Sequence record: OM870969.1
DNA: 64,000 bases
Origin: Pseudomonas phage vB_Paer_PsCh
Direction: 5' to 3' (one strand)
Positions 31,534 through 64,000 of this stretch are shown piece after piece. The notes under the pieces are model-generated. The model saw nothing but the letters and a program-made list of their open reading frames with translations, did no database searches and was not told the DNA's origin. The translations under genes and the position numbers were made by a program. Position 1 is the stretch's first letter. Each line of letters begins with the position of its first letter.

Positions 31534-31550
31534 TCAAAAGGGACTACAGA

Positions 31551-32774: not shown

Positions 32775-32780
32775 AATAAT

Positions 32781-32888: not shown

Positions 32889-33473
32889 ATGCTGCTAGTT
32901 CATGGGACCACTGCAAAAGGCCTGAAAGCTATCATGAACCGTCAAGGCAAGGAAGGATTGGCCGCACCTTGGGACGTTTCGGATCATGATGGAATGTCAT
33001 ACTTTTACAACGTGAACAAGGCTATGGAATGGCACGATGAAGAAGAGTATGCTAAAGCGGAATGCATTATCCGTTGCCTAGAACAGGCTCAATTACAGCA
33101 AGCTATGATGGCCGAAGGCGGTAAAATCTACGCTCTGGTTGTCGATATCCCCGAAGAGTTTCAGGACCGCGTAGAAGATGATTATTCGTGCCCTAACGCC
33201 AGTAATGAAGCTAGCTGTTTTCCAGAGGATAACTTTGATCCATCATGGATTGTAGAAGTGTATGAGGCAGAGGTGAGTGTATGGGCCATCCCTTTCATCG
33301 TAGCTGGAATCTCAGGTAATTCTATGTTCCAATCCCACCAACTACCTGACAAACTGGTGGCGATAGCGGAGTCGGTGGCACGGTCCAGTGACATAGACAC
33401 ATACGAAGCTTTCGAGATAGACCATTCACAGGTGGAGCTGTCAATTCTCGAACATTTCAAAGATAACGCTTGA
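32889..33473 (+). CDS. strongly acidic protein (194 aa), candidate DNA-mimic/anti-restriction type
   Basis: Asp/Glu-rich throughout (DIPEEFQDRVEDDY...EDNFDPS...); early-region position. Confidence 0.45.
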   Translation: MLLVHGTTAKGLKAIMNRQGKEGLAAPWDVSDHDGMSYFYNVNKAMEWHDEEEYAKAECIIRCLEQAQLQQAMMAEGGKIYALVVDIPEEFQDRVEDDYSCPNASNEASCFPEDNFDPSWIVEVYEAEVSVWAIPFIVAGISGNSMFQSHQLPDKLVAIAESVARSSDIDTYEAFEIDHSQVELSILEHFKDNA

Positions 33474-33497
33474 CAGTCTAGCCACCTAGCGTAGAAT
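33470..33497 (+). promoter_or_regulatory. early promoter copy F (TTGACA-16-TAGAAT), divergent spacer
   Basis: CGCTTGACAGTCTAGCCACCTAGCGTAGAATGCCTAGCC. Confidence 0.55.
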
Positions 33498-33544
33498 GCC
33501 TAGCCAAGGGGTGCATAAGCGCCCCACTCAAAAGGATACAGAAA

Positions 33545-33790
33545 ATGGCCATCGTTGATCGAACCGCAGGTAATGAAAGCCCGAATCACTGCTACATCGT
33601 CACTGGTAGCATTGGACCAGAGTTTGAGCCGACTCTGTTCACTACCCATGCGCTGGCAAAGAAGTATGCTGAGCAGATAGTGAAATACGGCAAGGCAAAT
33701 GATGTTTTCCCGCCTTTTACGCCTGTTATCGAGACTCGCCACAAGGCGGATATGCATCGGTTCACCATTCACAACAAAATCCCCGAATAG
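33545..33790 (+). CDS. hypothetical protein (81 aa)
   Basis: RBS AAAGGATACAG. Confidence 0.45.
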   Translation: MAIVDRTAGNESPNHCYIVTGSIGPEFEPTLFTTHALAKKYAEQIVKYGKANDVFPPFTPVIETRHKADMHRFTIHNKIPE

Positions 33791-33801
33791 GAGACGTATC
33801 T

Positions 33802-34131
33802 ATGAAACTTTCTGAAATTTTCCAAAAAGGCCTGAACTATGCAATTGAGTACGGAATGCCGTGGTATATGTGCATCCGTCTCCGGGAGATTCATTTGTTC
33901 CCCTCGCCCGTTGAAATGGCAGTTAACTCGGTCATGATGTCTGCCGGTATCTCATCAACCCCAGAGGGATGCGAATTCGCCGGCGTTGATGACTATTTCG
34001 AGGAAAGCGGCCTAGCAGCCGCATACAAAATGAACAATCAGGAAATGTCCGAATACGGGCGCTCATCCTACGCAATGTGGGTGCAATTTTGGTTCTTCGT
34101 AATCTTTGACTTAGCCCGAAAAGGGCAGTAG
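33802..34131 (+). CDS. hypothetical protein (109 aa)
   Basis: RBS AGGAGACG. Confidence 0.45.
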   Translation: MKLSEIFQKGLNYAIEYGMPWYMCIRLREIHLFPSPVEMAVNSVMMSAGISSTPEGCEFAGVDDYFEESGLAAAYKMNNQEMSEYGRSSYAMWVQFWFFVIFDLARKGQ

Positions 34132-34166
34132 AATAGCCGGCAGATAATGTGATCTAAGGGACGATC

Positions 34167-34628
34167 ATGAAAGACAAGACTGTAGTTTATCGAATCGAGT
34201 GCAAGAACGGCGAGGGCCCTTATGTTAACGGGTGCATGACGAATTCGTCTTCCACTCCAGAGCGGCCTGTCCCTGAGCATGACGGGATACCAGATGTTCG
34301 CTATTTTGAGTTCTTCGCCTTCACGTCCCCTAGGCAGCTAGACGATTGGTTTGGCGATGAATACGATGTGCTGTCCTTCTATTCTACCGCACGGATCAGA
34401 GTCTATGAGGTAGACAAGCAACATGTAAGAGTCGGCATCCGGCAATGTGTATTCCGCAAGGCGGAAGCTGATTGCGTCCAAGAGGTGAGCATAGACCAAT
34501 GGGTTAGCATGGTACGCGCCGGACTATTGTCCGCCTCGGTCACACAAACTGTAGCTCCACGTCCTACCGAGCAATTGTCCCTAGACCTAGGGATGACTCG
34601 GCCTGCGAAGCTTCGAAAGAAATTTTGA
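34167..34628 (+). CDS. hypothetical protein (153 aa)
   Basis: RBS AAGGGACG. Confidence 0.45.
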   Translation: MKDKTVVYRIECKNGEGPYVNGCMTNSSSTPERPVPEHDGIPDVRYFEFFAFTSPRQLDDWFGDEYDVLSFYSTARIRVYEVDKQHVRVGIRQCVFRKAEADCVQEVSIDQWVSMVRAGLLSASVTQTVAPRPTEQLSLDLGMTRPAKLRKKF

Positions 34629-34647
34629 AAATGTTCGGTCTGTAGGG

Positions 34648-34679
34648 TTGACAGCTTGGGCCATTCGCGTAGAATGGCC
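34648..34679 (+). promoter_or_regulatory. early promoter cassette copy G with palindrome variant GGCCATTCGCGTAGAATGGCC
   Basis: GGGTTGACAGCTTGGGCCATTCGCGTAGAATGGCCCTCAAGCAAGACAAACC. Confidence 0.7.
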
Positions 34680-34731
34680 CTCAAGCAAGACAAACCGCCG
34701 GCAGGCAAAACCACAAACCCGGAGACTCACC

Positions 34732-35259
34732 ATGAACAAGCCAATGAACACTTTCGCATACGCCCACTACGTCGCCCGCATGGACAAGGCCTCTGGCACT
34801 AGCCTGCCCTACGCCACCCTGTTCCGCATCGCCCTGCGTAACGCCTACCGCAAGCCGGGTGTCCGCCAGTACGATTGTGCAGCACTCGTCGAGGATATCA
34901 AAGCGCGTGAACTGGTCCAAAAGCGCATTCGGGCTGAAAAAGCAGTAGTGATGGCGGCAGTAATGCGTGCAATCCGTACCGGCTTCACCGTGAGCGTGAA
35001 GGATGGCAGCGACGGTGAATGGGTAGTGAAGAAGTCTACCGATATCAAGGAAATCTCTGACAGCCTACAATCGACCGATGAGGATATCATCCGCTTCCGC
35101 AAGGGTGACGGCCCGGACAACATCGTCGGCTCTATGTGGGCAATCTACGGTAACAGCGCTGGCGAAGTGATCGCCGACTGGACCGAAAACGCCACCATGG
35201 CCATGATTATGGCTCCCGCAGAACGCAAGATGGAAAAATACGCTGAATTAGGTATCTAA
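34732..35259 (+). CDS. hypothetical protein (175 aa)
   Basis: Start moved to ATG 34732. Track ORF 34648 begins inside the promoter. Confidence 0.45.
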   Translation: MNKPMNTFAYAHYVARMDKASGTSLPYATLFRIALRNAYRKPGVRQYDCAALVEDIKARELVQKRIRAEKAVVMAAVMRAIRTGFTVSVKDGSDGEWVVKKSTDIKEISDSLQSTDEDIIRFRKGDGPDNIVGSMWAIYGNSAGEVIADWTENATMAMIMAPAERKMEKYAELGI

Positions 35260-35262
35260 TGC

Positions 35263-35291
35263 TTGACGGGGCCCGAAAAGGGCCCCATAAT
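35263..35291 (+). promoter_or_regulatory. promoter copy H (TTGACG-17-CATAAT) with perfect hairpin GGGGCCCGAAAAGGGCCCC in spacer
   Basis: The hairpin may double as a terminator for the upstream gene. Confidence 0.45.
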
Positions 35292-35327
35292 GCACCCACA
35301 TCAGCAAACAACATCAGGACTGACCCG

Positions 35328-35540
35328 ATGAGCCAGATCAAAATCCAAGAGTATATCGTAGCCGAGATCAAGGTTAACCATTGCGCTCATCTGCGCAAGG
35401 GCCAGACCATCCAAGCCCGCGATGCTCGTAGCAGTGAAAAGTGGATTGCATTCATGGTGGAACGCGGGTATAGTGCCTCTGAAGCCGCTATCCTGTTCAA
35501 AGATGCACATGATGTGGCAATTCTCGAACTGGCAGCCTAA
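35328..35540 (+). CDS. hypothetical protein (70 aa)
   Basis: Start moved to ATG 35328, downstream of promoter H. Confidence 0.35.
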   Translation: MSQIKIQEYIVAEIKVNHCAHLRKGQTIQARDARSSEKWIAFMVERGYSASEAAILFKDAHDVAILELAA

Positions 35541-35565
35541 CACTCAACCTTAATAGGAGTTACCA

Positions 35566-35871
35566 ATGTCTAATGCACCTGTCTGGACTACCGAACTTGA
35601 AAAAGCCTCTGCGGCTGAAGGCTGGTCAGTTTTCGATACAGAAGGGAGTGATAACGGTCCGTATCAAATTCAGCGGATAGATGACCCGGAAGCTTATGAA
35701 GAAGCTACGGGGGAATTGCCGCCCCGGCTAGAAAGCGATGTGGCGGCATGGCTACTCGTCTTCAACGGAAAGGGTCTGCACCATGCGGCGGCCAAGGAAT
35801 TCATCGCCCATCACAATCCGAAAGAGTGGGCCGCAATTGTCGAGTATTGCCAGCAAGGCGACGTTCTCTGA
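35566..35871 (+). CDS. hypothetical protein (101 aa)
   Basis: RBS TAGGAGTT. Confidence 0.45.
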   Translation: MSNAPVWTTELEKASAAEGWSVFDTEGSDNGPYQIQRIDDPEAYEEATGELPPRLESDVAAWLLVFNGKGLHHAAAKEFIAHHNPKEWAAIVEYCQQGDVL

Positions 35872-35993
35872 AAGCCTCTCGAAAGAAGCTACTTCACAAG
35901 ATGATAAAATACATCGCCCGGTCAGGATGGAAACCGTAACCAATTGATTATCACAGCCCCGGCAAGCCGGGGCTCACAATAGGAGATAAAAGC

Positions 35994-36446
35994 ATGAATA
36001 CCCTGATTATCCGTTTGGATTCCGCCTACAGCGTTCAAACTGTCCGTAGTTTCCTTACGGAAGCTGTAGAGAGTATTCGAAAGCATATCCGGGACTACGC
36101 GGTGCATGACGAATACGATTCGGGATTGAGCCCGGTAGCACCCAATCATCGACTTGCAATCGTCACCTTGGACGAAGATTGCCGAGTGTTTCACATTCAA
36201 TGCGAGTCACCTGATCTTTATCTGGCGAACCCTCGGATCGTGTTTACTGATGTTGAAAGCCCGGCATATACCACTCCCGTGAACGAGATCGAAGAGTATA
36301 GTTACATGACCGCATGGCAGCATATACGCCAAAAAGATATGACAGCAAAAGACTACCTGACGGATTGGTCTATCCTTTTCGCCTCAAAGGAGAATGCCAT
36401 TGATATCGACCCGCGCCCCAATCTGAAAACGCAAATCTTGCATTAA
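35994..36446 (+). CDS. hypothetical protein (150 aa)
   Basis: RBS TAGGAGATAAAA. Upstream hairpin GCCCCGGCAAGCCGGGGC. Confidence 0.45.
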   Translation: MNTLIIRLDSAYSVQTVRSFLTEAVESIRKHIRDYAVHDEYDSGLSPVAPNHRLAIVTLDEDCRVFHIQCESPDLYLANPRIVFTDVESPAYTTPVNEIEEYSYMTAWQHIRQKDMTAKDYLTDWSILFASKENAIDIDPRPNLKTQILH

Positions 36447-36460
36447 CTGAGAGAGCTAGG

Positions 36461-36691
36461 ATGAAGCTGCGAACCATATTCGAAACCTACGATTGCCGAG
36501 TTAGGTTTGTCACCATAACCGGCGTGTTTGTGGAATCTCAAATTGTGCGGAGTTTAGGTCAAGCTCAGGAGATTATATCATTCCTCTGCGATCCCGCAGA
36601 TACTGGTATCCGTCTATCCTTCTTCGACGAAGAGGAGGGCTGCGAGTCGATCCTCTGCCGATTCAACTACAAAGGAGAAATCATCAAATGA
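36461..36691 (+). CDS. hypothetical protein (76 aa)
   Basis: RBS GAGAGCTAGG. Confidence 0.4.
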   Translation: MKLRTIFETYDCRVRFVTITGVFVESQIVRSLGQAQEIISFLCDPADTGIRLSFFDEEEGCESILCRFNYKGEIIK

Positions 36692-36978
36692 ATAACAAGT
36701 ATAAGGATAACATCATTGCGGAATACTGCCATTTCGACGGCAGACGGCCAGTCCTTTCCTTGGCGGCACGATGGGTCCACTACGATAGTCGCGTTGTGAA
36801 GCTGGCAGCGCTCTTTGCCTGTGCTGGCTATGGCCGTCCGTACAAAGATTGTATTAAGGCCTACAAGGACGCCAAGCAGCGGGAAAAGGATATGCGAAAC
36901 CCTGCCAAATGGAAGCTGAGCCGAGCGACTAAGCGGGCTCTACGGGCTCGACTAGTGGCTATAGAAAAACTAGAATAA
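36688..36978 (+). CDS. hypothetical protein (96 aa)
   Basis: ATGA overlap. Confidence 0.4.
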   Translation: MNNKYKDNIIAEYCHFDGRRPVLSLAARWVHYDSRVVKLAALFACAGYGRPYKDCIKAYKDAKQREKDMRNPAKWKLSRATKRALRARLVAIEKLE

Positions 36979-36993
36979 TCCGGAAAATACCTG

Positions 36994-37023
36994 TTGACGT
37001 GAGGCTAGAGGGTTCCCTATACT
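36994..37023 (+). promoter_or_regulatory. sigma70-type promoter (TTGACG-18-TATACT)
   Basis: Lies ahead of gene 37074. Confidence 0.45.
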
Positions 37024-37073
37024 GTGCCTATCGAGACGCACAAGGCGTCTCCTAAGCTAGAAGGACTAGCAAA

Positions 37074-37340
37074 ATGGCAAAGGCAAATCTGAAGTTCTCC
37101 CGCATTGGCAATGACGGCTACGACTACGCCCGCAGGGAAGACGGGGTTTGGTTTGTCAGAGAAGGGTACTACGGGCGGTACGGCTGGGCTAAAACCAAAT
37201 GGACTCAAGTTCAACCCGGAGATGGCATGACTATAGTTAACGCCTGCCTGAAGGCTCACGAAGCTGGAAGCTCCAGCACATACATCGGATTCGGGAATCT
37301 GGTGGTATTCTCCGACGGGAAGGGGCTCCGTTTACCCTGA
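37074..37340 (+). CDS. hypothetical protein (88 aa)
   Basis: RBS AAGGACTAGCAAA. Confidence 0.45.
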   Translation: MAKANLKFSRIGNDGYDYARREDGVWFVREGYYGRYGWAKTKWTQVQPGDGMTIVNACLKAHEAGSSSTYIGFGNLVVFSDGKGLRLP

Positions 37341-37361
37341 ACAGGAACTCAAATAAAGTTG

Positions 37362-37393
37362 TTGACAGCTTAGGCCATTCCTGTAGAATGGCC
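37362..37393 (+). promoter_or_regulatory. early promoter cassette copy I with palindrome
   Basis: GTTGACAGCTTAGGCCATTCCTGTAGAATGGCCATCAAGCAAAGGGAATCGCCCTGAGCA. Palindrome at 37373-37393. Confidence 0.7.
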
Positions 37394-48182: not shown

Positions 48183-48401
48183 TCAATATTCGACTTCTTC
48201 TACTGGCAGCGTCAGCACAGGGTAGATGCATGGAAGGCGCAGCAATGGTTGCTTCTTGCTGTGGAAGTCTTCCCAAAACTTATCGTGCATCGTCTTGTAC
48301 CGAGCGTCCAGTTCCTCCTTGGTGTCGAACTCCTCCACCTTGACAACCCTCTTCTCTGGAGCCGAACGCTTATACTCTACAATCCAGATACTCAAGCTCA
48401 C
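48183..48401 (-). CDS. hypothetical protein (72 aa)
   Basis: ORF between the Prs-like and NAMPT-like genes. Confidence 0.4.
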   Translation of the reverse strand: MSLSIWIVEYKRSAPEKRVVKVEEFDTKEELDARYKTMHDKFWEDFHSKKQPLLRLPCIYPVLTLPVEEVEY

Positions 48402-49264
48402 AGGCGTTCCGCCTTGGAGTATTCAACCGGAATGACAGTCAGCGCTTCGTGCTCTTTTTGAGGGAGCGTATCCGAGGTGTAGATGCATCCGAAGGAATCC
48501 AGCAAGCAGTCGATACCCTTACTGAAGATTCCATGAGTGACGAACAGGTCAGGGAGCACTTTACTGTACTCTCTTAGGGCCTTAGACACGCTTCGGAATG
48601 TAGCACCTCCGTCACAGATATCGTCGATCACCAGAAGCGGAAGTTCAGGATCGATATCCGAAGGATTCAGAATTTCAAAGCCTTCGATTTTACCGGTCTG
48701 GAGATCGCGCTTCTTATTGCAACGAATTACAGCGGCTGCTCCGGCCTTCTTTGCAAAATCCTCGGTCCGCTTTGTTGCTCCGATATCAGGGGCTACGAGT
48801 TGATATTGCTCCCACTCTGAACGGCTCAGTAGGCCACCGAAGACCGAAGATTGACGGACAACTTCGACGTTGTTAATCAGGTGCAGAGTTGCGTCGCTGT
48901 GAGGGTCCACAACGATAACTCGGTCATATCCGGCAGAGTTCAGCATGTTTGCAAACACTTTCAAACTGAAGGCGTCGCCCGGATTGCACCGACGGTCTTG
49001 GCGAGCATACGGGACATAACCCAGCAGAAGAGTCATGTGCGGATTAATCATTTCTGCTCGGATCGCCTCGGTGACGTTGAGAAGAGCCATGATATCATCA
49101 CTATTCTGAATCTGAGCTTTAACGTTTACGAACGCATGGCTTTCGATGCCGCCCACATTAACGCCCACTTCGCCGCCCGGGAACGTCCACACTTTTGCCT
49201 CTTGCCACGGACGGCTCATAACACCTTCCATTTCCTGAAGGCAACCTACAGCATAACTAATCAT
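48398..49264 (-). CDS. ribose-phosphate pyrophosphokinase-like (Prs family; possibly Adps of an NARP1-type pathway)
   Basis: Motifs LVAPDIGATKRT and DDICDGGATF (PRPP-binding). Confidence 0.65.
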   Translation of the reverse strand: MISYAVGCLQEMEGVMSRPWQEAKVWTFPGGEVGVNVGGIESHAFVNVKAQIQNSDDIMALLNVTEAIRAEMINPHMTLLLGYVPYARQDRRCNPGDAFSLKVFANMLNSAGYDRVIVVDPHSDATLHLINNVEVVRQSSVFGGLLSRSEWEQYQLVAPDIGATKRTEDFAKKAGAAAVIRCNKKRDLQTGKIEGFEILNPSDIDPELPLLVIDDICDGGATFRSVSKALREYSKVLPDLFVTHGIFSKGIDCLLDSFGCIYTSDTLPQKEHEALTVIPVEYSKAERL

Positions 49265-49700: not shown

Positions 49701-50618
49701 TTAAATTCGAGCCATATCGAAGTAGGTTTCGATCAGAAGTCGTCGCTGTGCATCGGTCATTTCTGAGAACCGAGCCTCATCCACTTCATTTACCAAGAAG
49801 TCTACCAGAGGATAGAACTCTTCGTCAAGCGTCTGCTTGAATCCAGCCGGGTCTTGGTACATCGCATTGACCTTCTTACTACCCATCCTCATGATAAACT
49901 TCTTGCCGAGGTAGTGAGTCGACTTGCACTTCACTGTCCCTAGCCCTGTTTGTACCATGTAACCTTCTTTCTCACAAGAACTCAGAAGACCCTTTGCATG
50001 TTCCCAGCTACACTCTATGTGCTCTGGACGAAGAATCTTTACAGAACTGTGGTCCGTTACACCTAGGGCGTGAGAGTCAAGAATATATTCTGAAAGCTGG
50101 CCCCCAGTGAAGATATCGCGGATACCGATCAAATATGCCCCTTCTTCTTCCTCGACAATGTGAGGGTCGTCTGGAGAGCATATCTCGAAGTTATATGTGA
50201 AGCCTGCGATGTAATCATCTGGGTTATTCGACACATACTTCTGACCAAGGGCAACGTAATCGCTGGTCAATGACCCCGTAGTACTGAAGATAAGGGAGCC
50301 ATTGTGCTTAGTCACGGAGAACATGAATCCATTCACTTTCTCAATCAGCCGCACACGGAATTTAGGATGGAGGAAACTCCCAGCACCATTCTCTCCCAGA
50401 TTAAACACCTTCTCGAAGGGGCGTACAATACAATCACCGGAGTGCTGGTCAAATACATGACCCCGTGCCTCCAGAAGGAGCGGATGCTCATTCCACAGGT
50501 TCTCGTAGAACACCTTCCGGGCATACTTTATAATCGACATACCGTTGAAGTGCTTAACAGTCACCAGCTTATTAGCGATCAGGTCTTTGTACATTGCAAT
50601 GTTGAGATTACCTTCCAT
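49701..50618 (-). CDS. RNA ligase-like nucleotidyltransferase (Rnl2-like)
   Basis: Motif I EKVNGFMFS (KxNG), motif IV EGYMVQ, motif V VKCK. Confidence 0.5.
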   Translation of the reverse strand: MEGNLNIAMYKDLIANKLVTVKHFNGMSIIKYARKVFYENLWNEHPLLLEARGHVFDQHSGDCIVRPFEKVFNLGENGAGSFLHPKFRVRLIEKVNGFMFSVTKHNGSLIFSTTGSLTSDYVALGQKYVSNNPDDYIAGFTYNFEICSPDDPHIVEEEEGAYLIGIRDIFTGGQLSEYILDSHALGVTDHSSVKILRPEHIECSWEHAKGLLSSCEKEGYMVQTGLGTVKCKSTHYLGKKFIMRMGSKKVNAMYQDPAGFKQTLDEEFYPLVDFLVNEVDEARFSEMTDAQRRLLIETYFDMARI

Positions 50619-50629
50619 CCTACTTCTCC

Positions 50630-51037
50630 TTATTTCAATTCGACAATTGGGCAGAATTTAGCCTTCTTTGCCTTTAGATACGATACCAGAATCCCATCCT
50701 TGCTGGACGATTTACTCGACATAAAGCGAGAGAATCGGTAGAAAACCCACACGCCATAAAAGACGGCGATGATTCCAATCCATACAAACCCCATGACAGC
50801 CAGAGTCCCACCTAGAACATATCCGGTAAGTGGACCGAGAGCCAGAGAATACAATACAGAGCCTACAACAGCAGCGAGCGCTACAACCGTTAACGCCAGC
50901 CACACGACGAGGAATACTGTCTGCCAGAAATAAGAGCAGAGGGTTACAATTTGCCAACCGCTTGAGATAGCCGAATAGACCGGGGTCTCGAACGTACGAT
51001 GGAGCCGCATATGCCACGAATTCTTATCAATCTTCAT
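50630..51037 (-). CDS. membrane protein (3 TM)
   Basis: Hydrophobic helices throughout. Confidence 0.5.
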   Translation of the reverse strand: MKIDKNSWHMRLHRTFETPVYSAISSGWQIVTLCSYFWQTVFLVVWLALTVVALAAVVGSVLYSLALGPLTGYVLGGTLAVMGFVWIGIIAVFYGVWVFYRFSRFMSSKSSSKDGILVSYLKAKKAKFCPIVELK

Positions 51038-51309
51038 GCTTGTTCCTCCGGGAAGATGTTGAAGTTAAGTACGTTATGCTCTTCAAGTTCCATGGAGGCT
51101 ACCATCTTATAACCTCCGAGCTTGTGAACGATCTCCAGTATACTCTCAATAGAGAATTTGTCAACATGCTGCTTCATCAGATTGGAGATTCGGCTCTGAT
51201 GGGTTCCACACCGCTCTGCCACTTCCCGTTGAGTCAGCCCAGACTGAGTGATGTAGTGTGCAGCAACAACCATTACAGTTTTCTTGAAATCCTTGACCGG
51301 ATCATTCAT
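51034..51309 (-). CDS. helix-turn-helix (XRE-like) transcriptional regulator
   Basis: LTQREVAERCGTHQSRISNLMKQ matches an HTH pattern. Confidence 0.5.
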   Translation of the reverse strand: MNDPVKDFKKTVMVVAAHYITQSGLTQREVAERCGTHQSRISNLMKQHVDKFSIESILEIVHKLGGYKMVASMELEEHNVLNFNIFPEEQA

Positions 51310-51310
51310 G

Positions 51311-51547
51311 TTAGTCCTCCTTATTGCTCAGCGTTACTTTGCCATCGAATACTCGGAATTGAGCGATCTCAAACTGATCCGTCCAGCGGGCGTCCTCGAA
51401 AGCCACTCCTTCAAAAGTCCCGTCTTGTTTAACATCAGAAGTCATGAGGACGATAAAAGGAACTCCGTCGTCATGGATCAGTTCCACCAGAGTGTTAGCT
51501 TTAGGTTTAACATCCTCCTTGTCACGCGAAATCAACACATTGACCAT
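51311..51547 (-). CDS. hypothetical protein (78 aa)
   Basis: ORF. Confidence 0.4.
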   Translation of the reverse strand: MVNVLISRDKEDVKPKANTLVELIHDDGVPFIVLMTSDVKQDGTFEGVAFEDARWTDQFEIAQFRVFDGKVTLSNKED

Positions 51548-51559
51548 TCTTTCCTCCTT

Positions 51560-52114
51560 TTATTTATGGTGGTCTACAACCACAAACTCTTGCTCTCGCA
51601 TATATTCCCTCACTTCGTCGTAAGAGAATACCTGATGGTCCGGGTGATTGTCAATACCTACATCAAGCCGCTTACCCTTGGAAGGCAGGCTACCGTGAGT
51701 GTGACCATGCAGGTGCCAAGCGCCATGATGAGCGGTATTCCACGTCTCGAAAGGATAGTGGCACATGACGATCTTAACTCCGTCGATCCTCACTTCCTTG
51801 TAGTCTCGGATATCTTCGACGTGCGATAGGTTGCTGTCTTCAATCAGCTTCCACAGTCGGCTATCACAGTGATTACCCTTGAGGAAGGTGATCCGACCGT
51901 TCAACTGTCTAATGATATCCAGTACAGCTTGTAGCTTGTTCTTACCTGCAAAAGCGAAGTCGCCCAAGTGATACACTTCGTCAAAAAGACCGACCCGGGA
52001 GTTCCACCGAGAGATAAGCTCCTCGGTTTGCTCCTCGAAAGTCCACGGCCTGTTGCAGTATTCGATCACATTCTTATGGAAGAAGTGAAGATCGGAAGAG
52101 AAAAATACAGACAT
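51560..52114 (-). CDS. Ser/Thr protein phosphatase-like metallophosphoesterase
   Basis: Motifs GDFAFAG, GNHC, HGHTHG. Confidence 0.6.
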   Translation of the reverse strand: MSVFFSSDLHFFHKNVIEYCNRPWTFEEQTEELISRWNSRVGLFDEVYHLGDFAFAGKNKLQAVLDIIRQLNGRITFLKGNHCDSRLWKLIEDSNLSHVEDIRDYKEVRIDGVKIVMCHYPFETWNTAHHGAWHLHGHTHGSLPSKGKRLDVGIDNHPDHQVFSYDEVREYMREQEFVVVDHHK

Positions 52115-52545
52115 TATGCCTCCATTTCAAATTCGTAAATTTTGTTAATCCTGCGGATGAGTCGCATAGCGGCCCCTCCCAGCAGATGTTCACGCTCCGG
52201 TTCCATACTAGCCATGGCCTTGAACTCTGCTAACATATCTCGTCGCTCGTAGTGGAAGTCTACCACCCAATAATGGTCCGCATTGATCTTACCCTCTCGG
52301 TGCAGATGCCCTTCTACGCCTAGCCAGTGGTCTACCGCATCCTTATTCAAAAGCTCCTTCGGAGCCCACTTGTCTACACCTCGCAGCTTCTCGAAGAAAG
52401 AGTAAGGACGAGAATAGCTCATGATGGCTTCCTCTACGGCCGATTCAGCCTGCAATTTGATGAACTCCCATCTTGCAATAACTTCTTTAATCTCCCCAGT
52501 GGTGACTGGAGTGTAGCTATACTGCTCTTTATATTCATTCCACAT
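52114..52545 (-). CDS. hypothetical protein (143 aa)
   Basis: ORF. Confidence 0.45.
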   Translation of the reverse strand: MWNEYKEQYSYTPVTTGEIKEVIARWEFIKLQAESAVEEAIMSYSRPYSFFEKLRGVDKWAPKELLNKDAVDHWLGVEGHLHREGKINADHYWVVDFHYERRDMLAEFKAMASMEPEREHLLGGAAMRLIRRINKIYEFEMEA

Positions 52546-53095
52546 TATACTGTTCTCCTACATAGCCTTTGAATTTGTCGGAACGAGTTGTCTTCTTCCG
52601 TGCCTTGTTTTCCAGAACTGATGCTTCCCTTTCGAGCATGCTCAGTTGGTTGCTATACTTCTTGATCCGCTTCGAGTTACCACTCATCACAGAATTTGTA
52701 AGATTTGCGATAGTATCGCAGATTTTCACTTCTCTTGCAACCGGATGATTACGGCAAGCTTCGATATACTTACGGTAGCTCTCAGCACGGTTCTTATCGA
52801 GAATGACCAGAGCCTCTACGATGTGAGGCATCACGCCCATGGACTCCAAGTCTTCCTCTGTCAACTCTGTATCCTCCAGAACGTCGTGCAGGAAGCACAC
52901 AGCGAGAAGAGTGTCCATGTACGGAAGGTCGGAGAAAGCCTGACCCGGGTCCATATCTTTAGGAGCGTTGCGAGCCACGCAGACTGTATGCACCTGATTC
53001 AGATGGTAAGCATACGGGAAGTTGGTCTCTCCGTACCGCTGACCTTCGTGAGCCGAGAGTGCGATCTCAATAGCGATACCAAGCTGAGTGTTCAT
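52535..53095 (-). CDS. HD-domain (p)ppGpp hydrolase-like protein (SpoT/Mesh1-type)
   Basis: IALSAHEGQRYGETNFPYAYHL and CFLHDVLEDT match the RelA/SpoT hydrolase domain. Confidence 0.6.
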   Translation of the reverse strand: MNTQLGIAIEIALSAHEGQRYGETNFPYAYHLNQVHTVCVARNAPKDMDPGQAFSDLPYMDTLLAVCFLHDVLEDTELTEEDLESMGVMPHIVEALVILDKNRAESYRKYIEACRNHPVAREVKICDTIANLTNSVMSGNSKRIKKYSNQLSMLEREASVLENKARKKTTRSDKFKGYVGEQYNVE

Positions 53096-53096
53096 A

Positions 53097-53657
53097 TTAG
53101 TCTCCTTTGTAGAATGTGTGGTTGCCTATCTTGATTGTGCGCTTGTATTTCCTAGCCCACCGAGGAAGCTTGCCATTATTAGCCCGTCTCACCTTCCTCT
53201 CGTTGAGGTAGTGATCGGCTCCTCTCGTTGGATCGACAGTATACCCATATAGGGCGTTGTATGCAACATGTTTCGCTGCCTCCCACTTGTCAAGCTCCTT
53301 GACACCTTGCCGCATACTCCCATCGCAGGTGTAGGAATACTGGCACTTGAAGTAGAGCACTCCGGCTACTGTGCTCGGCCACCTGTCGTGCTTCATTCTG
53401 TTCACTACGGTGTGTGCTACAGCAATCTGACCGATCTCCGGTTCTCCCCGGGCCTCGAAGTATACAGCTTCAGCTAACAACCTGCAAGGCTTTCTGTACT
53501 CACACAAGGTGCGCTTGCTTTCTATGATTTGACCGGGGCTGGCTTGGAACTCTACTACAGGTTCTGTGCCGTATTTGAGACGAGAGTATTCCATATCTAG
53601 GAACATCCCAATAAAAGCTAGAAGGATCGACAAAACGAGAGCTTCTAAGGTTTCCAT
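53097..53657 (-). CDS. cell-wall hydrolase (SleB/Hydrolase_2-like) with N-terminal membrane anchor
   Basis: N-terminal TM followed by AHTVVNRMKHDRWPSTVAGVLYFKCQYSYTCDG. Confidence 0.5.
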   Translation of the reverse strand: METLEALVLSILLAFIGMFLDMEYSRLKYGTEPVVEFQASPGQIIESKRTLCEYRKPCRLLAEAVYFEARGEPEIGQIAVAHTVVNRMKHDRWPSTVAGVLYFKCQYSYTCDGSMRQGVKELDKWEAAKHVAYNALYGYTVDPTRGADHYLNERKVRRANNGKLPRWARKYKRTIKIGNHTFYKGD

Positions 53658-53669
53658 AACACCTCCTTA

Positions 53670-53698
53670 GACAAAGAAGCCCGCCTTGTGGGCGGGCT
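53670..53698 (-). terminator. rho-independent terminator (minus strand)
   Basis: GCCCGCCCACAAGGCGGGC hairpin followed by TTCTTTGT on the minus strand. Confidence 0.55.
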
Positions 53699-53714
53699 TT
53701 ATATCACTTGGTTA

Positions 53715-59410: not shown

Positions 59411-59434
59411 CAAAAATGGGCCCGAAAGGGCCCT
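59411..59434 (-). terminator. rho-independent terminator (minus strand)
   Basis: GGGCCCTTTCGGGCCC hairpin followed by ATTTTTG on the minus strand. Confidence 0.55.
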
Positions 59435-60328: not shown

Positions 60329-60356
60329 ATAATACCACGTTTCTCAGGAATGTCAA
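60329..60356 (-). promoter_or_regulatory. sigma70 promoter for the minus-strand operon (TTGACA-16-TATTAT, extended -10 TGGTATTAT)
   Basis: Minus-strand read: GGGTTGACATTCCTGAGAAACGTGGTATTATTG. Confidence 0.55.
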
Positions 60357-60378: not shown

Positions 60379-60407
60379 TTGACATAGAGGAAATCTGTGG
60401 TATTATC
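60379..60407 (+). promoter_or_regulatory. divergent sigma70 promoter (TTGACA-17-TATTAT, extended -10 TGGTATTAT)
   Basis: GGCTTGACATAGAGGAAATCTGTGGTATTATCA. Confidence 0.55.
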
Positions 60408-61427: not shown

Positions 61428-61501
61428 TGCCGCTTCGTTTAATGGTAGGACGCCAGACTTTGAATCTGGAGATGATGGTTCGATCCCATCAGCGGCTGCC
61501 A
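61428..61501 (+). tRNA. tRNA-Gln (anticodon TTG)
   Basis: Cloverleaf: anticodon arm CCAGA-CTTTGAA-TCTGG; T-arm GATGG-TTCGATC-CCATC; encoded CCA; U1:U72 mismatch. Confidence 0.6.
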
Positions 61502-61582
61502 AATGTAGTAAAAGAACATTCACCCGACAAGGAATGTGTCTCGCTCAGAGGACAGCGAGTAATAAGTGTCCTCCAGAATTAA

Positions 61583-61659
61583 GGGTCGGTGAGCGTAATT
61601 GGCAACCTACTGGATTCCAAATCCTCGTATTCTCTGTTCGAATCGGAGTCGGCCCGCCA
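61583..61659 (+). tRNA. tRNA-like element, anticodon arm not resolvable (possible pseudo-tRNA)
   Basis: Good acceptor (GGGTCGG/TCGGCCC), T-arm CTCTG-TTCGAAT-CGGAG and encoded CCA, but no clean anticodon stem by eye. Confidence 0.35.
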
Positions 61660-61667
61660 AATTAGTG

Positions 61668-61696
61668 TTGACAGGAGAGAAGGTCTCCTGTATAGT
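61668..61696 (+). promoter_or_regulatory. sigma70 promoter (TTGACA-17-TATAGT) with inverted repeat in spacer
   Basis: GTTGACAGGAGAGAAGGTCTCCTGTATAGT. Confidence 0.5.
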
Positions 61697-61706
61697 GACG
61701 CCAATT

Positions 61707-61781
61707 GCTCGTATAGTGTAACGGATGCACAACGGTCTTCTAAGCCGTAAGGTCTAGGTTCGAATCCTAGTATGAGCGCCA
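61707..61781 (+). tRNA. tRNA-Arg (anticodon TCT)
   Basis: Acceptor GCTCGTA/TATGAGC; anticodon arm ACGGT-CTTCTAA-GCCGT; T-arm CTAGG-TTCGAAT-CCTAG; CCA. Confidence 0.65.
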
Positions 61782-61788
61782 AATTAGA

Positions 61789-61864
61789 TGGACGGAAGCT
61801 AAAGTGGATAGGCATCGGGCTTTTAACCCGACTATAGTGAGTTCGAGTCTCACCCGTTCAACCA
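61789..61864 (+). tRNA. tRNA-Lys (anticodon TTT)
   Basis: Anticodon arm TCGGG-CTTTTAA-CCCGA; T-arm GTGAG-TTCGAGT-CTCAC; CCA. Confidence 0.65.
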
Positions 61865-61869
61865 ATTTT

Positions 61870-61957
61870 AGTGAGTAAATCAGATAGGTTCTGAGGCTCC
61901 CTGCTAAGGAGTACGTCTGCTAACGCGGATGTGGATCGAGACCACTGCTCACTGCCA
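61870..61957 (+). tRNA. tRNA-Ser (anticodon GCT), type II long variable arm
   Basis: 88 nt. Anticodon arm GCTCC-CTGCTAA-GGAGT; acceptor AGTGAGT/GCTCACT; CCA. Confidence 0.55.
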
Positions 61958-61976
61958 AAATAAGTGATTTTAAGTG

Positions 61977-62005
61977 TTGACAAACTGAATTTTTCATGTT
62001 TTAAT
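61977..62005 (+). promoter_or_regulatory. sigma70 promoter (TTGACA-17-TTTAAT)
   Basis: GTGTTGACAAACTGAATTTTTCATGTTTTAAT. Confidence 0.45.
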
Positions 62006-62040
62006 ACACTTATCAGATCAAGAAATACTTAGCGAGTAGC

Positions 62041-62120
62041 CCTGAGTAGGTCGGGAACTAGTCTAGAAAACTAGGCCACTGTGATGAACGGTGAGGGTTC
62101 AACTCCTTTACTCGCTGCCA
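62041..62120 (+). tRNA. type II tRNA (Ser-like; anticodon loop CTAGAAA parses as AGA; uncertain)
   Basis: Acceptor AGCGAGT/ACTCGCT, 3-bp D stem CCC/GGG, anticodon stem CTAGT/ACTAG, T-loop TTCAACT, CCA. A34 would be unusual. Confidence 0.4.
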
Positions 62121-62126
62121 AATTTT

Positions 62127-62211
62127 GGCCCTGTGGTGGAATTGGTATACACATCAGTCTTAGAAACTGACGCCGAGAGGATTGAGGGTTCAAGTCCCTC
62201 CGGGGCCACCA
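62127..62211 (+). tRNA. tRNA-Leu (anticodon TAG), type II
   Basis: Acceptor GGCCCTG/CGGGGCC; anticodon arm TCAGT-CTTAGAA-ACTGA; T-arm AGGGTTCAAGTCCCT; CCA. Confidence 0.65.
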
Positions 62212-62220
62212 AATTAAGAA

Positions 62221-62297
62221 TCTCTTTTGCTATTTGGTAAGGGTTCGAGTCCCTTCCCGGCTGCTATGGTCGGTCTACGGTGGCCAAATAGTGAGAG
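62221..62297 (+). ncRNA. structured RNA candidate: ~15-bp outer stem (TCTCTTTTGCTATTTGG / CCAAATAGTGAGAGA) enclosing an orphan T-arm-like hairpin AAGGGTTCGAGTCCCTT
   Basis: Inverted repeat read directly from the sequence. No acceptor, D or anticodon arms, so not a tRNA. Confidence 0.4.
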
Positions 62298-62368
62298 AGC
62301 TAGGGGACATGACGAAGGTAGCGCTGCTTTCCGACCTCCCCGGCGCTATAAAAGTTATCATGAAGGGG

Positions 62369-62396
62369 TTGACAAACAAGAAATTCATGATAATAT
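62369..62396 (+). promoter_or_regulatory. sigma70 promoter (TTGACA-16-TAATAT)
   Basis: GGTTGACAAACAAGAAATTCATGATAATAT. Confidence 0.5.
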
Positions 62397-62421
62397 AGGT
62401 ACATAGAGTAACAAACAATAC

Positions 62422-62497
62422 GGCCAGATAGCTCAATTGGTAGAGCCCCCGACCGATAATCGGGTGGTTGAAGGTTCAAGTCCTTCTCTGGCCACCA
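62422..62497 (+). tRNA. tRNA-Ile (anticodon GAT)
   Basis: Acceptor GGCCAGA/TCTGGCC; D-arm GCTCAATTGGTAGAGC; anticodon arm CCCGA-CCGATAA-TCGGG; CCA. Confidence 0.75.
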
Positions 62498-62506
62498 AAA
62501 TTTATA

Positions 62507-62585
62507 GGCCCATTAGCTCAGTCTGGACTAGAGCAAGCCCCTGTCTAGGGCAAGGTCGCCGGTTCGAATCCGGCATGGGTCGCCA
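62507..62585 (+). tRNA. tRNA-Asp (anticodon GTC)
   Basis: Anticodon loop CTGTCTA; T-arm GCCGG-TTCGAAT-CCGGC; CCA; long D-loop. Confidence 0.55.
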
Positions 62586-62589
62586 ACAA

Positions 62590-62676
62590 GGTCGTTGTAG
62601 AGATAGATGGCTACTATCATCCGGCTGTAACCCGGACGCCATAGGCTAGAGGTTCAATTCCTTCCTTCGACCACCA
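62590..62676 (+). tRNA. tRNA-Tyr (anticodon GTA), type II; acceptor-stem base imperfect in my parse
   Basis: Anticodon arm TCCGG-CTGTAAC-CCGGA; long variable arm; TTCAATT T-loop; CCA. Confidence 0.45.
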
Positions 62677-62679
62677 AAT

Positions 62680-62760
62680 AGCGAGAGCGTTAAGACTGGC
62701 TGGCGCTGTCCCTCGGCTCATAACCGAATACAAGTGGTTCGATTCCACCTCTCGCTTCCA
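62680..62760 (+). tRNA. tRNA-Met/Ile2-like (anticodon CAT)
   Basis: Perfect acceptor AGCGAGA/TCTCGCT; anticodon loop CTCATAA; T-arm GTGG-TTCGATT-CCAC; CCA. 81 nt with atypical D-arm. Confidence 0.45.
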
Positions 62761-62994
62761 AATTGCACTCCGAGGAACCCTAAGTGGTGGGTTCAGTGTC
62801 GCTACCTATCTCGGTAAGGGGAAGCGCCTAAGCTGGCACGGGTAATTGAGTAGCTGTGATAAGCTACTGGCAGCCAGTATAAATCGTCCGGCTCGGGCCC
62901 GTTATAGCTCCTAGATTTGAATTAGATGCTGTAAGCCATAGGAGGTGATCCAGTATCTCCCGGAGGGGCCCGGGTTAACAACCTCATGAATTTA

Positions 62995-63071
62995 GCCCGC
63001 GTTGGCCGAGAGGTTTAGGCGGCGGATTGCAAATCCGTCTCACATCGGTTCAAATCCGATACGCGGCTCCA
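62995..63071 (+). tRNA. tRNA-like (anticodon loop TTGCAAA = GCA, Cys?), acceptor pairing imperfect
   Basis: T-arm ATCGG-TTCAAAT-CCGAT; CCA; anticodon arm GCGGA-TTGCAAA-TCCGT. Confidence 0.35.
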
Positions 63072-63081
63072 AGGTTTATAT

Positions 63082-63157
63082 TGGGATGTAGCTCAGTTGG
63101 CAGAGCAGGGAGCTGTTAACTCTCAGGTCGCAGGTTCGAGCCCTGCCGTCCCAGCCA
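63082..63157 (+). tRNA. tRNA-Asn (anticodon GTT)
   Basis: Acceptor TGGGATG/CGTCCCA; D-arm GCTCAGTTGGCAGAGC; anticodon arm GGGAG-CTGTTAA-CTCTC; T-arm GCAGG-TTCGAGC-CCTGC; CCA. Confidence 0.75.
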
Positions 63158-63220
63158 ATTTCCAAAAGAGACTCTTCGCTTCAGAAGCAGAGTCGAACGC
63201 CCGATACGGGCCTTATTCAT

Positions 63221-63298
63221 CTCCTCGTAGCTCAGTCTGGTTAGAGTGTCGGATTTGGAATCCGAAGGTCGAAGGTTCAAATCCTTCCGGGGTGACCA
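63221..63298 (+). tRNA. tRNA-Pro (anticodon TGG)
   Basis: Anticodon arm TCGGA-TTTGGAA-TCCGA; T-arm GAAGG-TTCAAAT-CCTTC; CCA. Confidence 0.6.
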
Positions 63299-63304
63299 AT
63301 CAAA

Positions 63305-63380
63305 GCGGGTATAGCTCAGTTGGTAGAGCGTCTGCCTTCCAAGCAGTTCGTCGTCGGTTCGAGTCCGTCTATCCGCTCCA
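63305..63380 (+). tRNA. tRNA-Gly (anticodon TCC)
   Basis: Acceptor GCGGGTA/TATCCGC; D-arm GCTCAGTTGGTAGAGC; anticodon loop CTTCCAA; CCA. Confidence 0.65.
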
Positions 63381-63386
63381 AACAAA

Positions 63387-63463
63387 GGGACTGTAGCTCA
63401 GAAGGTTAGAGCGGTGGATTGAAATCCCACAGGTCGGGCGTTCGATTCGCCCCGGTCCCACCA
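63387..63463 (+). tRNA. tRNA-Phe (anticodon GAA)
   Basis: Acceptor GGGACTG/CGGTCCC; anticodon loop TTGAAAT; T-arm GGGCG-TTCGATT-CGCCC; CCA. Confidence 0.65.
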
Positions 63464-63469
63464 AATAAA

Positions 63470-63545
63470 GCAGTTATAGATTAATTGGTTAAATCGCCAG
63501 ACTTTCAATCTGGTGTTCCGGGTTCGATCCCCGGTAACTGCTCCA
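63470..63545 (+). tRNA. tRNA-Glu (anticodon TTC)
   Basis: Perfect acceptor GCAGTTA/TAACTGC; anticodon arm CCAGA-CTTTCAA-TCTGG; T-arm CCGGG-TTCGATC-CCCGG; CCA. Confidence 0.65.
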
Positions 63546-63611
63546 ATCAAGTCCAAGCCGGAACATTCCTCCGTATGTGCTTTCAGCCGGCTTGGCATTA
63601 TTCGTGTGGAG

Positions 63612-63678
63612 ATTGTGTAGCCCGGATGCTGCCTTTCGGTTGTGACCCGATTGTTGGGGTTCGAGTCCCCGCCTCCAA
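63612..63678 (+). tRNA. tRNA-like element (T-arm GGGG-TTCGAGT-CCCC, CCA end), body not resolvable
   Basis: Acceptor TGGAGAT/GCCTCCA partly pairs. Possibly a degenerate tRNA. Confidence 0.25.
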
Positions 63679-64000
63679 CCAATGTCGTGCAATGGTATAT
63701 CGCGTTGACGCTTTTAGGCTCTCTGGATCGTAAGCCAGTAAAGCGAGAATAGCGGGCTCTCGCAGCAGAGCGATAGGTGGTTCGATTCCACAACATGACA
63801 CTCTTTCCTCCTCGCCTGTGCTGAACGGTTTCCTCCTCCTTTCCCGTCTCACAGGCTCTATTCCCTGCCCTTTAAGCATTTATGGTGATGCACCGGCTTT
63901 GTAACCCGGCGAATTCTGTTCAAGTCAGGAATGGGGCACCAATTCACTATCAAAGAACCCGCAAGCTCCCGATAGGGTTCACACTCTATAAGGTTGTAGC

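Follow-up and report, generated by a model that had tools for sequence, protein, structure and literature searches.

A predicted small alarmone hydrolase and a putative split RNA end-healing set share a packed operon in Pseudomonas phage vB_Paer_PsCh

The 64,000-nucleotide stretch of Pseudomonas phage vB_Paer_PsCh analysed here (sequence record OM870969.1; "the window") carries a run of minus-strand genes, of which the interval 51034-53095 had been put forward as a host-signalling takeover cluster: a (p)ppGpp hydrolase of the HD type, a lambda-like Ser/Thr phosphatase, a helix-turn-helix (HTH) regulator and a membrane protein. We favour a different reading, with a probability of roughly 0.6, in which the region holds two separate enzyme functions in a packed operon instead of one signalling cluster. 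One is a small alarmone hydrolase (SAH), and the other is a split RNA end-healing system in which the phosphoesterase works with a downstream polynucleotide kinase (Pnk) and RNA ligase. The open reading frames (ORFs) named in the original prediction do exist on the minus strand, each with an ATG start and a Shine-Dalgarno sequence, but the four genes are neighbours in a long, mixed auxiliary operon and do not form a takeover cluster.

The 186-residue HD protein contains the RelA/SpoT motifs that had been quoted for it, A15-H16-E-G-Q19-R20...P27-Y28-A-Y-H31 and L69-H70-D71-V-L-E74-D75-T76. When this single sequence was compared with PDB sequences using phmmer, the prophage enzyme Aph1 (7SMG) ranked first at 2.8e-11, followed by PaSAH (6YVC at 9.5e-6; 6YVC and 6Z3N both near 1e-5) and afterwards by SpoT, Rel and Mesh1. 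A word-indexed homologue search with the same sequence returned 6 proteins only, and an exhaustive search recovered 5,525 relatives at E ≤ 1e-3 among 1.84 billion representative proteins, most of them 135-170 residues long. A family profile built from 61 of these relatives matched Aph1 at 2e-24, PaSAH at 1e-20, and Mesh1 and the hydrolase domains of long RelA/SpoT homologues (RSH) at 1e-9 to 1e-13. Re-searching with the profile placed many relatives on contigs of phage-genome size (about 90-105 kb). Matches to the NCBIfam SpoT/RelA models were weak (4e-4, far under their cutoffs), and PADLOC gave no match for the HD protein, the phosphoesterase or the small ORFs.

Residue conservation and predicted fold agree with the profile matches. 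Among up to 158 aligned relatives, the metal ligands H31 and H70-D71 are invariant and D127 is kept in 157 of 158, and all align with their equivalents in Aph1 and PaSAH. The E74-D75 diad directly follows the HD motif (HDxxED), and K124, D127 and N131 are retained in 157-158 of the 158. The full set of invariant or near-invariant positions (H16, Q19, Y21, Y28, H31, H70, D71, E74, D75, K124, D127, N131, K146 and Y147) includes the counterparts of the RSH hydrolase metal ligands, catalytic ED diad and K...D..N motif. The AlphaFold2 (AF2) model of the protein has a mean confidence (pLDDT) of 89.8, low only across the C-terminal 30 residues or so. Foldseek returned Aph1 as its best match, with a target-normalised template modelling score (TM) of 0.83 and a root-mean-square deviation of 2.5 Å, and ranks 1-38 were occupied by Aph1, PaSAH, Mesh1, RelH, Rel, SpoT or the uncharacterised Listeria protein lmo0812 (4YF1). 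Comparison with BFVD likewise pointed to RSH hydrolases. We also considered a deoxynucleoside triphosphate (dNTP) triphosphohydrolase or 5'-nucleotidase; YpgQ, YfbR, HDDC2 and a phage dATPase scored only E > 0.1-0.5 against the model. This alternative is unlikely, because profile, residue and fold evidence all point to RSH hydrolases. Sequence profile and structural model thus identify the protein as a predicted phage SAH of the RelA/SpoT-homologue superfamily, within a clade marked by the signature HxGQxYG. Phage SAH genes are an established kind, and this one has itself been annotated before: the orthologue in phage Adele is labelled "small alarmone hydrolase" (PMC12846349, 2025), and several GenBank records name homologues ppGpp pyrophosphohydrolase. 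The Pakpunavirus SAHs also bear a lysine-rich C-terminal extension (residues 156-186 approximately, pLDDT 55-64) that is missing from most relatives of 140-165 residues; its coding sequence, 52535-52630, overlaps the start of the adjoining 143-residue ORF.

Aph1, from a Bacteroides caccae prophage, is a short single-domain SAH (PMC10083569) and the best match in both sequence and structure. The two share the HD metal ligands, the ED diad, N114 (N131 in the window protein) and the C-terminal Lys-Tyr pair. They differ in that the window protein lacks D24, R96, D116 and R119, has Tyr at the D24 position, carries a C-terminal tail of about 30 residues and is encoded by a virulent phage with no toxin gene adjacent. 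PaSAH, the host's own SAH, hydrolyses both (p)ppGpp and (p)ppApp. It is the second-best match (1e-20 with the family profile, TM about 0.70) with equal GQ-to-PY spacing, but its identity is only 22-24% by structural alignment, it has Leu at the clade's Tyr position, and the region after the N-L motif differs. The SAHs of Salmonella phages PVP-SE1 (PbcSpo) and SSU5 (PaSpo) resemble the window protein in being stand-alone enzymes of lytic or plasmid-like phages with no partner toxin. They are probably members of other SAH subfamilies; tblastn with the HD protein retrieved no Salmonella-phage record at E ≤ 1e-3.

The original prediction went beyond the family to conclude that the phage degrades host (p)ppGpp. 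The RSH hydrolase assignment stands on residues, profile and fold, but the specificity does not: the Aph1 signature and the guanine-stacking residues of Rel are both missing. Ahmad et al. described a (p)ppApp-specific signature in Aph1 comprising D24, R96, D116, R119, K133 and Y134 (PMC10083569). In HMMER alignments D24 corresponds to Y21, R96 to A113 and D116 to T133, and R119 falls within an Aph1-specific insertion with no equivalent in the HD protein. Only the K133-Y134 pair is retained, as K146-Y147, so that two of six signature residues are kept. The guanine-contacting residues R43, R44 and S45 of TtRel are replaced by Y21-G22-E23. Y21 and G22 are each kept in 144 of 158 sequences of the HxGQxYG clade, and the preceding R20 varies (K/M/L/R). 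The Y21 site contacts the base and is occupied by Arg in Rel and by Asp in Aph1; an aromatic side chain there could stack on adenine or guanine alike. The Aph1 D24R/R119A double mutant acquires ppGpp hydrolysis (PMC10083569), and we therefore argue that loss of the signature residues points to a broader specificity. The preference among (p)ppGpp, (p)ppApp and pyrophosphorylated tRNA is not callable from sequence, and the authors of the Adele paper came to the same conclusion on substrate for the orthologous gene (PMC12846349).

The second enzyme is a 184-residue metallophosphoesterase (MPP). Its metal-binding motifs, D8-x-H10, G51-D52, G80-N81-H82, H119 and G137-H138-x-H140, are invariant or nearly so in 51 sequences, and its Pfam Metallophos_2 score (32.6 bits) exceeds the cutoff of 27. 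The AF2 model (pLDDT 97) lies nearest to Aquifex aq_1665 (1XM7; TM 0.69), with MJ0936 phosphodiesterase, LpxH, Mre11 and GpdQ next. The metallophosphoesterase part of the earlier description thus held and the lambda-like part did not. Lambda phosphatase (1G5B) shares the superfamily and its D-x-H, G-D, G-N-H, H and G-H-x-H metal motifs, but it ranked 33rd in Foldseek (E = 0.017, TM 0.40). Where PPP enzymes have GDxHG, GDxVDRG and GNHE, the window protein reads SDLHFFH, GDFAFAG and GNHC; its second motif lacks a following Arg-Gly, and GNH does not lead into an acidic residue. Motifs and fold rule out a relative of the lambda phosphatase/CthPnkp branch (CthPnkp being the Pnkp of C. thermocellum). 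From its motifs and modelled fold, the protein is assigned to the genuine calcineurin-like metallophosphoesterases, in the aq_1665/MJ0936-like group of small MPPs.

Genes for a Rnl1-like RNA ligase and a Pnk-like protein lie 1-2 kb downstream of the MPP gene, all three being within 2.9 kb. The putative polynucleotide kinase of Adele was reported to lack a 3'-phosphatase domain (PMC12846349), and the window Pnk, at 138 residues, has no phosphatase domain and no DxDGT motif. Its relationship to known kinases was seen at the profile level only: the single sequence had no match in the PDB and BLASTP detected no similarity to T4-type Pnkp, but a family profile matched T4 Pnk first (2e-8), then a Rhizopus azygosporus kinase chain (9D8A), Pnkp1 and mammalian PNKP. 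The profile also matched 171-residue chains deposited as "Metallophosphoesterase" (4GP7/4JST), which we take to be the kinase domain of C. thermocellum Pnkp. As a separate observation, the PADLOC model "CARF4--CARF_PDDEXK_AAA" aligns with the window Pnk over the model's N-terminal 113 positions (3e-15), and a Pnk-related kinase-like domain thus appears to occur in a candidate defence protein. The ligase matches T4 Rnl1 (2C5U) at 2.4e-3.

Gene neighbourhoods in viral contigs link the MPP to the kinase. We sampled viral loci anchored on Pnk (80 IMG/VR loci, L182-L261, chosen only for the kinase family and representing the best 80 of about 550), on the MPP (the best 80 of about 570 MPP-family viral loci) and on the HD protein (80 loci). 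Of the 80 Pnk-anchored loci, 54 have an MPP homologue no more than 3 kb away on the same strand, mostly directly adjacent to the kinase gene. A Rnl1-like ligase was present in 25 of the 80, including 17 of the 54 loci with an MPP; for the other 37 none was detected nearby in a search that covered Rnl1-like ligases only. The set of MPP, ligase and kinase recurs in varied gene orders in unrelated contigs, some of which carry no HD gene. The HD-anchored loci were informative about the phosphatase itself. Each of the seven with a short Pnk (131-156 residues) also had an MPP, and none of the five with a T4-type Pnkp had one within 8 kb. The T4-type Pnkp matches 1LTQ at 3e-47 and bears its own DVDGT phosphatase motif. 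Such a complementary distribution would be expected if a stand-alone MPP had taken the place of the Pnkp phosphatase domain by non-orthologous replacement. There are precedents in that the phosphatase module of bacterial Pnkp is likewise an MPP (PMC2190708, PMC3675462), and calcineurin-like domains take the Pnkp-phosphatase role in some jumbo phages according to Iyer et al. (PMC7824862). A kinase-only Pnk with an aq_1665-like MPP is therefore a widespread two-gene pair in viral contigs, usually adjacent, and the MPP is most likely the 3'-end-healing partner of the kinase-only Pnk and the Rnl1-like ligase.

Two characterised systems provide the closest parallels. T4 Pnkp with Rnl1 resembles the window set in that a 5'-kinase, a 3'-phosphoesterase and a Rnl1-like ligase are encoded together. 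In the window, however, the activities are split over three polypeptides, and the 305-residue ligase matches only the N-terminal nucleotidyltransferase part of T4 Rnl1 (374-375 residues). CthPnkp is similar in using a binuclear metallophosphoesterase rather than an HAD enzyme, but the window MPP falls in the aq_1665/MJ0936-like group and has no specific similarity to the CthPnkp/lambda-phosphatase branch.

Several results weigh against the two-function reading. The HD protein of the window gave no match to Pfam HD_4 (PF13328) even at E ≤ 10, and its family membership was for that reason argued from profile and structure; PF13328 is precomputed for many other members of the clade, those at 30-45% identity. 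The MPP module of CthPnkp, the HAD domain of T4 Pnkp and the 2H enzymes were all missing from the top 50 Foldseek matches of the MPP and from its phmmer matches. Because it shows no specific similarity to the CthPnkp phosphatase module, its role in RNA end healing is drawn solely from gene neighbourhood. Eighteen of the 80 Pnk-anchored loci have neither an MPP nor a Rnl1-like ligase, and the sampled loci are not phylogenetically independent, so the counts given above overstate the number of independent events. Finally, the HD and MPP genes are adjacent or overlapping in Otagovirus and KoPa-4, and a joint function of the two proteins is possible.

Other readings of the HD protein turn on its substrate and its partners. 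It is somewhat unlikely, to our mind, that the protein is mainly a (p)ppApp hydrolase guarding the cell and its ATP pool against Tas1-type effectors of the type VI secretion system, FaRel-type toxic small alarmone synthetases (toxSAS) and MuF-fused prophage toxins. The best sequence and structure match is Aph1, whose C-terminal Lys-Tyr pair is conserved, the size and helix content are akin to those of short Aph1-type SAHs, and P. aeruginosa strain PA14 carries tas1 (PMC10083569); yet four of the six Aph1 signature residues are missing. The takeover module as first proposed, with a specific (p)ppGpp hydrolase acting beside a lambda-like Ser/Thr phosphatase and an HTH regulator, is unlikely. It would accommodate the RSH hydrolase fold and motifs, the position of PaSAH, active on both (p)ppGpp and (p)ppApp, as second-closest solved relative, and the ppGpp pyrophosphohydrolase labels of several homologues in GenBank. 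It fits poorly with a closest solved relative that is (p)ppApp-specific, with Y21-G22 in place of the guanine-stacking R43/R44 of TtRel, and with an MPP that is not PPP-like and tracks polynucleotide kinase. Moreover, the HTH protein, the membrane protein and the 143-residue ORF were undetected in the Otagovirus and KoPa-4 loci that retain HD and MPP. The Ser/Thr-kinase defence KKP still strongly protects against Pakpunavirus PaoP5 (PMC11341870), which weighs mildly against an anti-kinase role for the MPP, provided that PaoP5 carries the gene.

Gene order raises two further proposals, one for each enzyme. The MPP might degrade a nucleotide signal or metabolite, such as cyclic oligonucleotides, ADP-ribose derivatives or 2',3'-cyclic nucleoside monophosphates, and form a two-step clearing pair with the HD protein. 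The abutting or overlapping HD and MPP genes of Otagovirus and KoPa-4 (the latter with no Rnl or Pnk nearby) would suit such a pair, as would the nearest characterised structures, which are the small-molecule phosphodiesterases MJ0936, LpxH and GpdQ, and the proposal that calcineurin-like phosphodiesterases serve as phage anti-signal enzymes (PMC7824862). We consider this improbable: kinase-only Pnk is the dominant conserved neighbour (54/80), HD occurs in only 13 of the 80 MPP-anchored loci, and no sampled locus combines the MPP with a fused Pnkp phosphatase. It is similarly doubtful that the HD protein itself belongs to the tRNA-repair set, clearing the 3'-pyrophosphate placed on CCA ends by CapRel- or FaRel2-type toxSAS and so complementing Pnk-MPP-Rnl and the 14 phage tRNAs encoded at 61428-63941. 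The SAH of phage SSU5 does reverse tRNA 3'-pyrophosphorylation. In Pakpunavirus, Otagovirus and Vibrio phage 184E37.3a (the last with a different gene order), no more than 3.4 kb separates HD from Rnl, Pnk and MPP; HD also adjoins Rnl in Vibrio phage PG07 (Demerecviridae, T5-like), and accompanies T4-type Pnkp and Rnl in contigs L008-L011 and L037. On the other hand, an HD homologue is found in only 7 of the 80 Pnk-anchored loci, and Pnk or Pnkp in only 12 of the 80 anchored on HD. Most HD homologues have unrelated neighbours, for example head and tail genes, and the linkage may merely reflect a common accessory-gene region; an obligatory RNA-repair role for HD is unsupported by these counts. 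A bolder version holds that the HxGQxYG clade as a whole is specialised for 3'-pyrophosphorylated tRNA CCA ends rather than free alarmones and, in Pakpunavirus-like phages, joins a tRNA-rescue island. Such an island would consist of SAH, MPP, kinase-only Pnk and Rnl1-like ligase beside genes for NAD+ reconstitution and a tRNA set, and would jointly defeat CapRel/FaRel2-like toxSAS and anticodon nucleases; we regard this, too, as a long shot. Vibrio phage 184E37.3a (L006, MW824372) has two SAH-like HD genes, one beside an MPP-Rnl-Pnk block near the genome end and the other about 47 kb from it (record position 48835-49203).

Under the two-function reading, the HD protein would be a divalent-metal-dependent SAH (the metal being Mn2+ in characterised RSH hydrolases) that cleaves the 3'-pyrophosphate off hyperphosphorylated purine nucleotides, either or both of (p)ppGpp and (p)ppApp. 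A further substrate may be the 3'-pyrophosphorylated CCA end of tRNA, as for the SSU5 SAH, which strips the pyrophosphate added to tRNA by FaRel2 (10.1101/2024.07.05.602228). Such activity would blunt alarmone- or toxSAS-driven growth arrest of the infected cell. The stand-alone SAHs of PVP-SE1 and SSU5 neutralise all toxSAS toxins tested (PMC7229694), and "HD-alarmone PDEases" are on record for jumbo phages (PMC7824862). The MPP would supply the 2',3'-cyclic-phosphodiesterase and 3'-phosphatase steps of the split end-healing system, Pnk would heal 5' ends and the Rnl1-like ligase would seal. Together, the three would reseal tRNAs cut by host anticodon nucleases and would be the functional equivalent of T4 Pnkp and Rnl1.

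The remaining genes of the proposed cluster look like lineage-specific insertions rather than parts of either module. The small HTH protein is real: its scores exceed the Pfam cutoffs for HTH_37 (2.8e-12, 46.7 bits against 27) and HTH_3 (3.5e-6, 27.4 bits against 23), it matches PDB 2A6C at 2e-8, and its 91-residue sequence clearly reads as an XRE-type HTH. By tblastn it was found in 121 Pseudomonas-phage records only, all at ≥60% identity, and none of these is apparently KPP10-like; the gene is thus confined to Pakpunavirus as far as this search shows. The membrane protein is strongly hydrophobic at about residues 30-72 and 72-102 on the Kyte-Doolittle scale. It was counted within the interval 51034-53095, but its gene lies outside except for a 4-nt ATGA overlap. 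Nor is the HD gene flanked by the phosphatase and HTH genes, as had been stated; both are downstream on the same side, with the 143-residue and 78-residue ORFs intervening. The 143-residue ORF had no match in Pfam, NCBIfam, PDB or PADLOC and, among the fetched loci, was detected only in those at least 91% identical to the window (Pakpunavirus-like). The 78-residue ORF has counterparts of 36-42% identity (tblastn) in Otagovirus-like loci, 3' of the phosphoesterase gene. The Otagovirus and KoPa-4 loci preserve the HD-MPP(-Rnl-Pnk) order, and no homologue of the HTH protein, the membrane protein or the 143-residue ORF was detected in them. All four genes, those of the HTH and membrane proteins and the two small ORFs, would be lineage-specific passengers.

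The HTH protein had also been suggested to bind a set of palindromic early operators. The palindrome, GGCCATTC-N5-GAATGGCC, is genuine, with five exact copies in the window against 0.02 expected by chance. The copies span 26989-37393, 14-24 kb from the gene cluster, and each is followed by small plus-strand ORFs (27-37 kb). Every copy overlaps the TAGAAT -10 element of a TTGACA-N16-TAGAAT promoter, whose spacer and -10 region it forms; the consensus is TTGACAGCyTrGGCCATTCnnGTAGAATGGCC-mTCAAGC, with an 8-bp inverted repeat across the spacer and -10. Palindromes in this position may plausibly act as operators. The same promoter element is also present in other Pakpunavirus contigs and in KPP10 (Nankokuvirus). 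A dedicated pairing of the HTH protein with these promoters is a candidate idea that loses some ground with KPP10-like phages, in which the palindrome occurs but no HTH homologue was detected.

The genes discussed here form one slice of a larger unit (Table 1). Megablast with the region 50600-53700 returned 121 phage records, Pseudomonas phages without exception; the closest is Pseudomonas phage 37F (99.8% identity), then vB_PA45_GUMS, Zigelbrucke and JG004, and the Adele record is classified in the genus Pakpunavirus. GC skew and ORFs place minus-strand genes from about 40 kb to about 60 kb of the window. A single terminator-like hairpin, upstream of the SleB-like gene, was found in the operon region and probably delimits the transcription unit. 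The gene run 3' of it is unbroken, neighbouring genes overlapping or lying no more than 12 nt apart, and each gene has an ATG start and an AGGAG/GGAGG Shine-Dalgarno sequence (spaced 5-9 nt for the ORFs named in the original prediction). The interval 51034-53095 is accordingly an arbitrary slice of one long packed minus-strand Pakpunavirus operon of mixed auxiliary and counter-defence genes. We found no usable data in the literature on Pakpunavirus expression timing or on knock-outs of these genes.

Table 1. Positions of genes and other features in the window
Feature	Position	Strand	Evidence and remarks
Palindromic promoter copies	26989-27009, 28536-28556, 31280-31300, 34659-34679, 37373-37393	+	sigma-70-like
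PRPP-synthetase-like gene	48398-49264	-	orthologue in Adele annotated "ADP-ribose pyrophosphate synthetase"
Kinase-only Pnk-like P-loop protein, 138 aa	49274-49690	-	Pfam AAA_33; phrog_505 "polynucleotide kinase"
Rnl1-like RNA ligase, 305 aa	49701-50618	-	Pfam RNA_lig_T4_1 2.1e-9 (above cutoff); phrog_562
Small membrane protein, 135 aa	50630-51037	-	Kyte-Doolittle hydrophobic stretches; phrog_944 "membrane protein"
XRE-HTH protein, 91 aa	51034-51309	-	Pfam HTH_37, HTH_3; stop overlaps membrane-protein start (ATGA, 4 nt)
78-aa ORF	51311-51547	-	phrog_5447; function unassigned
Metallophosphoesterase (MPP), 184 aa	51560-52114	-	Pfam Metallophos_2 9.6e-8
143-aa ORF	52114-52545	-	phrog_6781 (unknown function); 11-nt overlap with HD gene, 1-nt overlap with phosphoesterase gene
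HD protein, 186 aa	52535-53095	-	ORF with Shine-Dalgarno; predicted SAH by profile, fold and residues
SleB-like cell-wall hydrolase	53097-53657	-	Pfam Hydrolase_2 5.7e-23; 2-nt gap, upstream of HD gene
Intrinsic-terminator-like hairpin	53677-53699	-	9-bp stem with 7 GC pairs, then T-rich tail; directly upstream of SleB-like gene
GGGCCC-N4-GGGCCC hairpin	59418-59433		perfect; terminator-like score on both strands
Promoter-like site	60329-60356	-	strong; divergent from the next
Promoter-like site	60379-60406	+	strong; divergent from the previous
tRNA cluster, 14 genes	61428-63941	+	Gln, Arg, Lys, Leu, Ile, Asp, Cys, Asn, Pro, Gly, Phe, Glu, His, Thr

Other features of the surroundings were recorded in passing. 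The PRPP-synthetase-like gene shares the operon with the RNA-repair and SAH genes. The Adele paper places its "ADP-ribose pyrophosphate synthetase" gene in NAD+ reconstitution pathway 1 (PMC12846349), and in Adele this gene is followed by genes annotated "nicotinamide ADP-ribosyltransferase" and "macro domain-containing protein". The SleB-like gene, labelled endolysin or lytic transglycosylase depending on the record, encodes a protein with an N-terminus that seems hydrophobic by eye, and it is surrounded by nucleotide-metabolism genes, not by a lysis cassette. The GGGCCC hairpin lies near the junction of the minus- and plus-strand gene blocks at about 60 kb, and the two divergent promoter-like sites are just past it. 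The tRNA cluster includes Lys(ttt), Gly(tcc) and Thr(tgt). The targets of the FaRel2 toxSAS are tRNA-Gly and tRNA-Thr according to the title of a preprint, and a passage of PMC2610378 gives tRNA-Lys as the target of the PrrC anticodon nuclease.

None of this is conceptually new, in that phage SAHs and calcineurin-like RNA-repair phosphatases were described or predicted previously. The reassignment of the MPP would nevertheless supply the 3'-phosphatase that the Adele paper noted as absent from Pnk, and a two-gene Pnk-MPP end-healing module could be annotated by rule in phages; the useful outputs are this pairing rule and the HxGQxYG clade signature. Resistance to toxSAS-type abortive infection would be accounted for if the SAH breaks down (p)ppGpp, (p)ppApp or pyrophosphorylated tRNA, and such an activity could also change the stringent-response-dependent antibiotic tolerance of infected cells. 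Pakpunaviruses are widely used phage-therapy candidates against P. aeruginosa, and knowledge of their counter-defence repertoire helps to predict host range.

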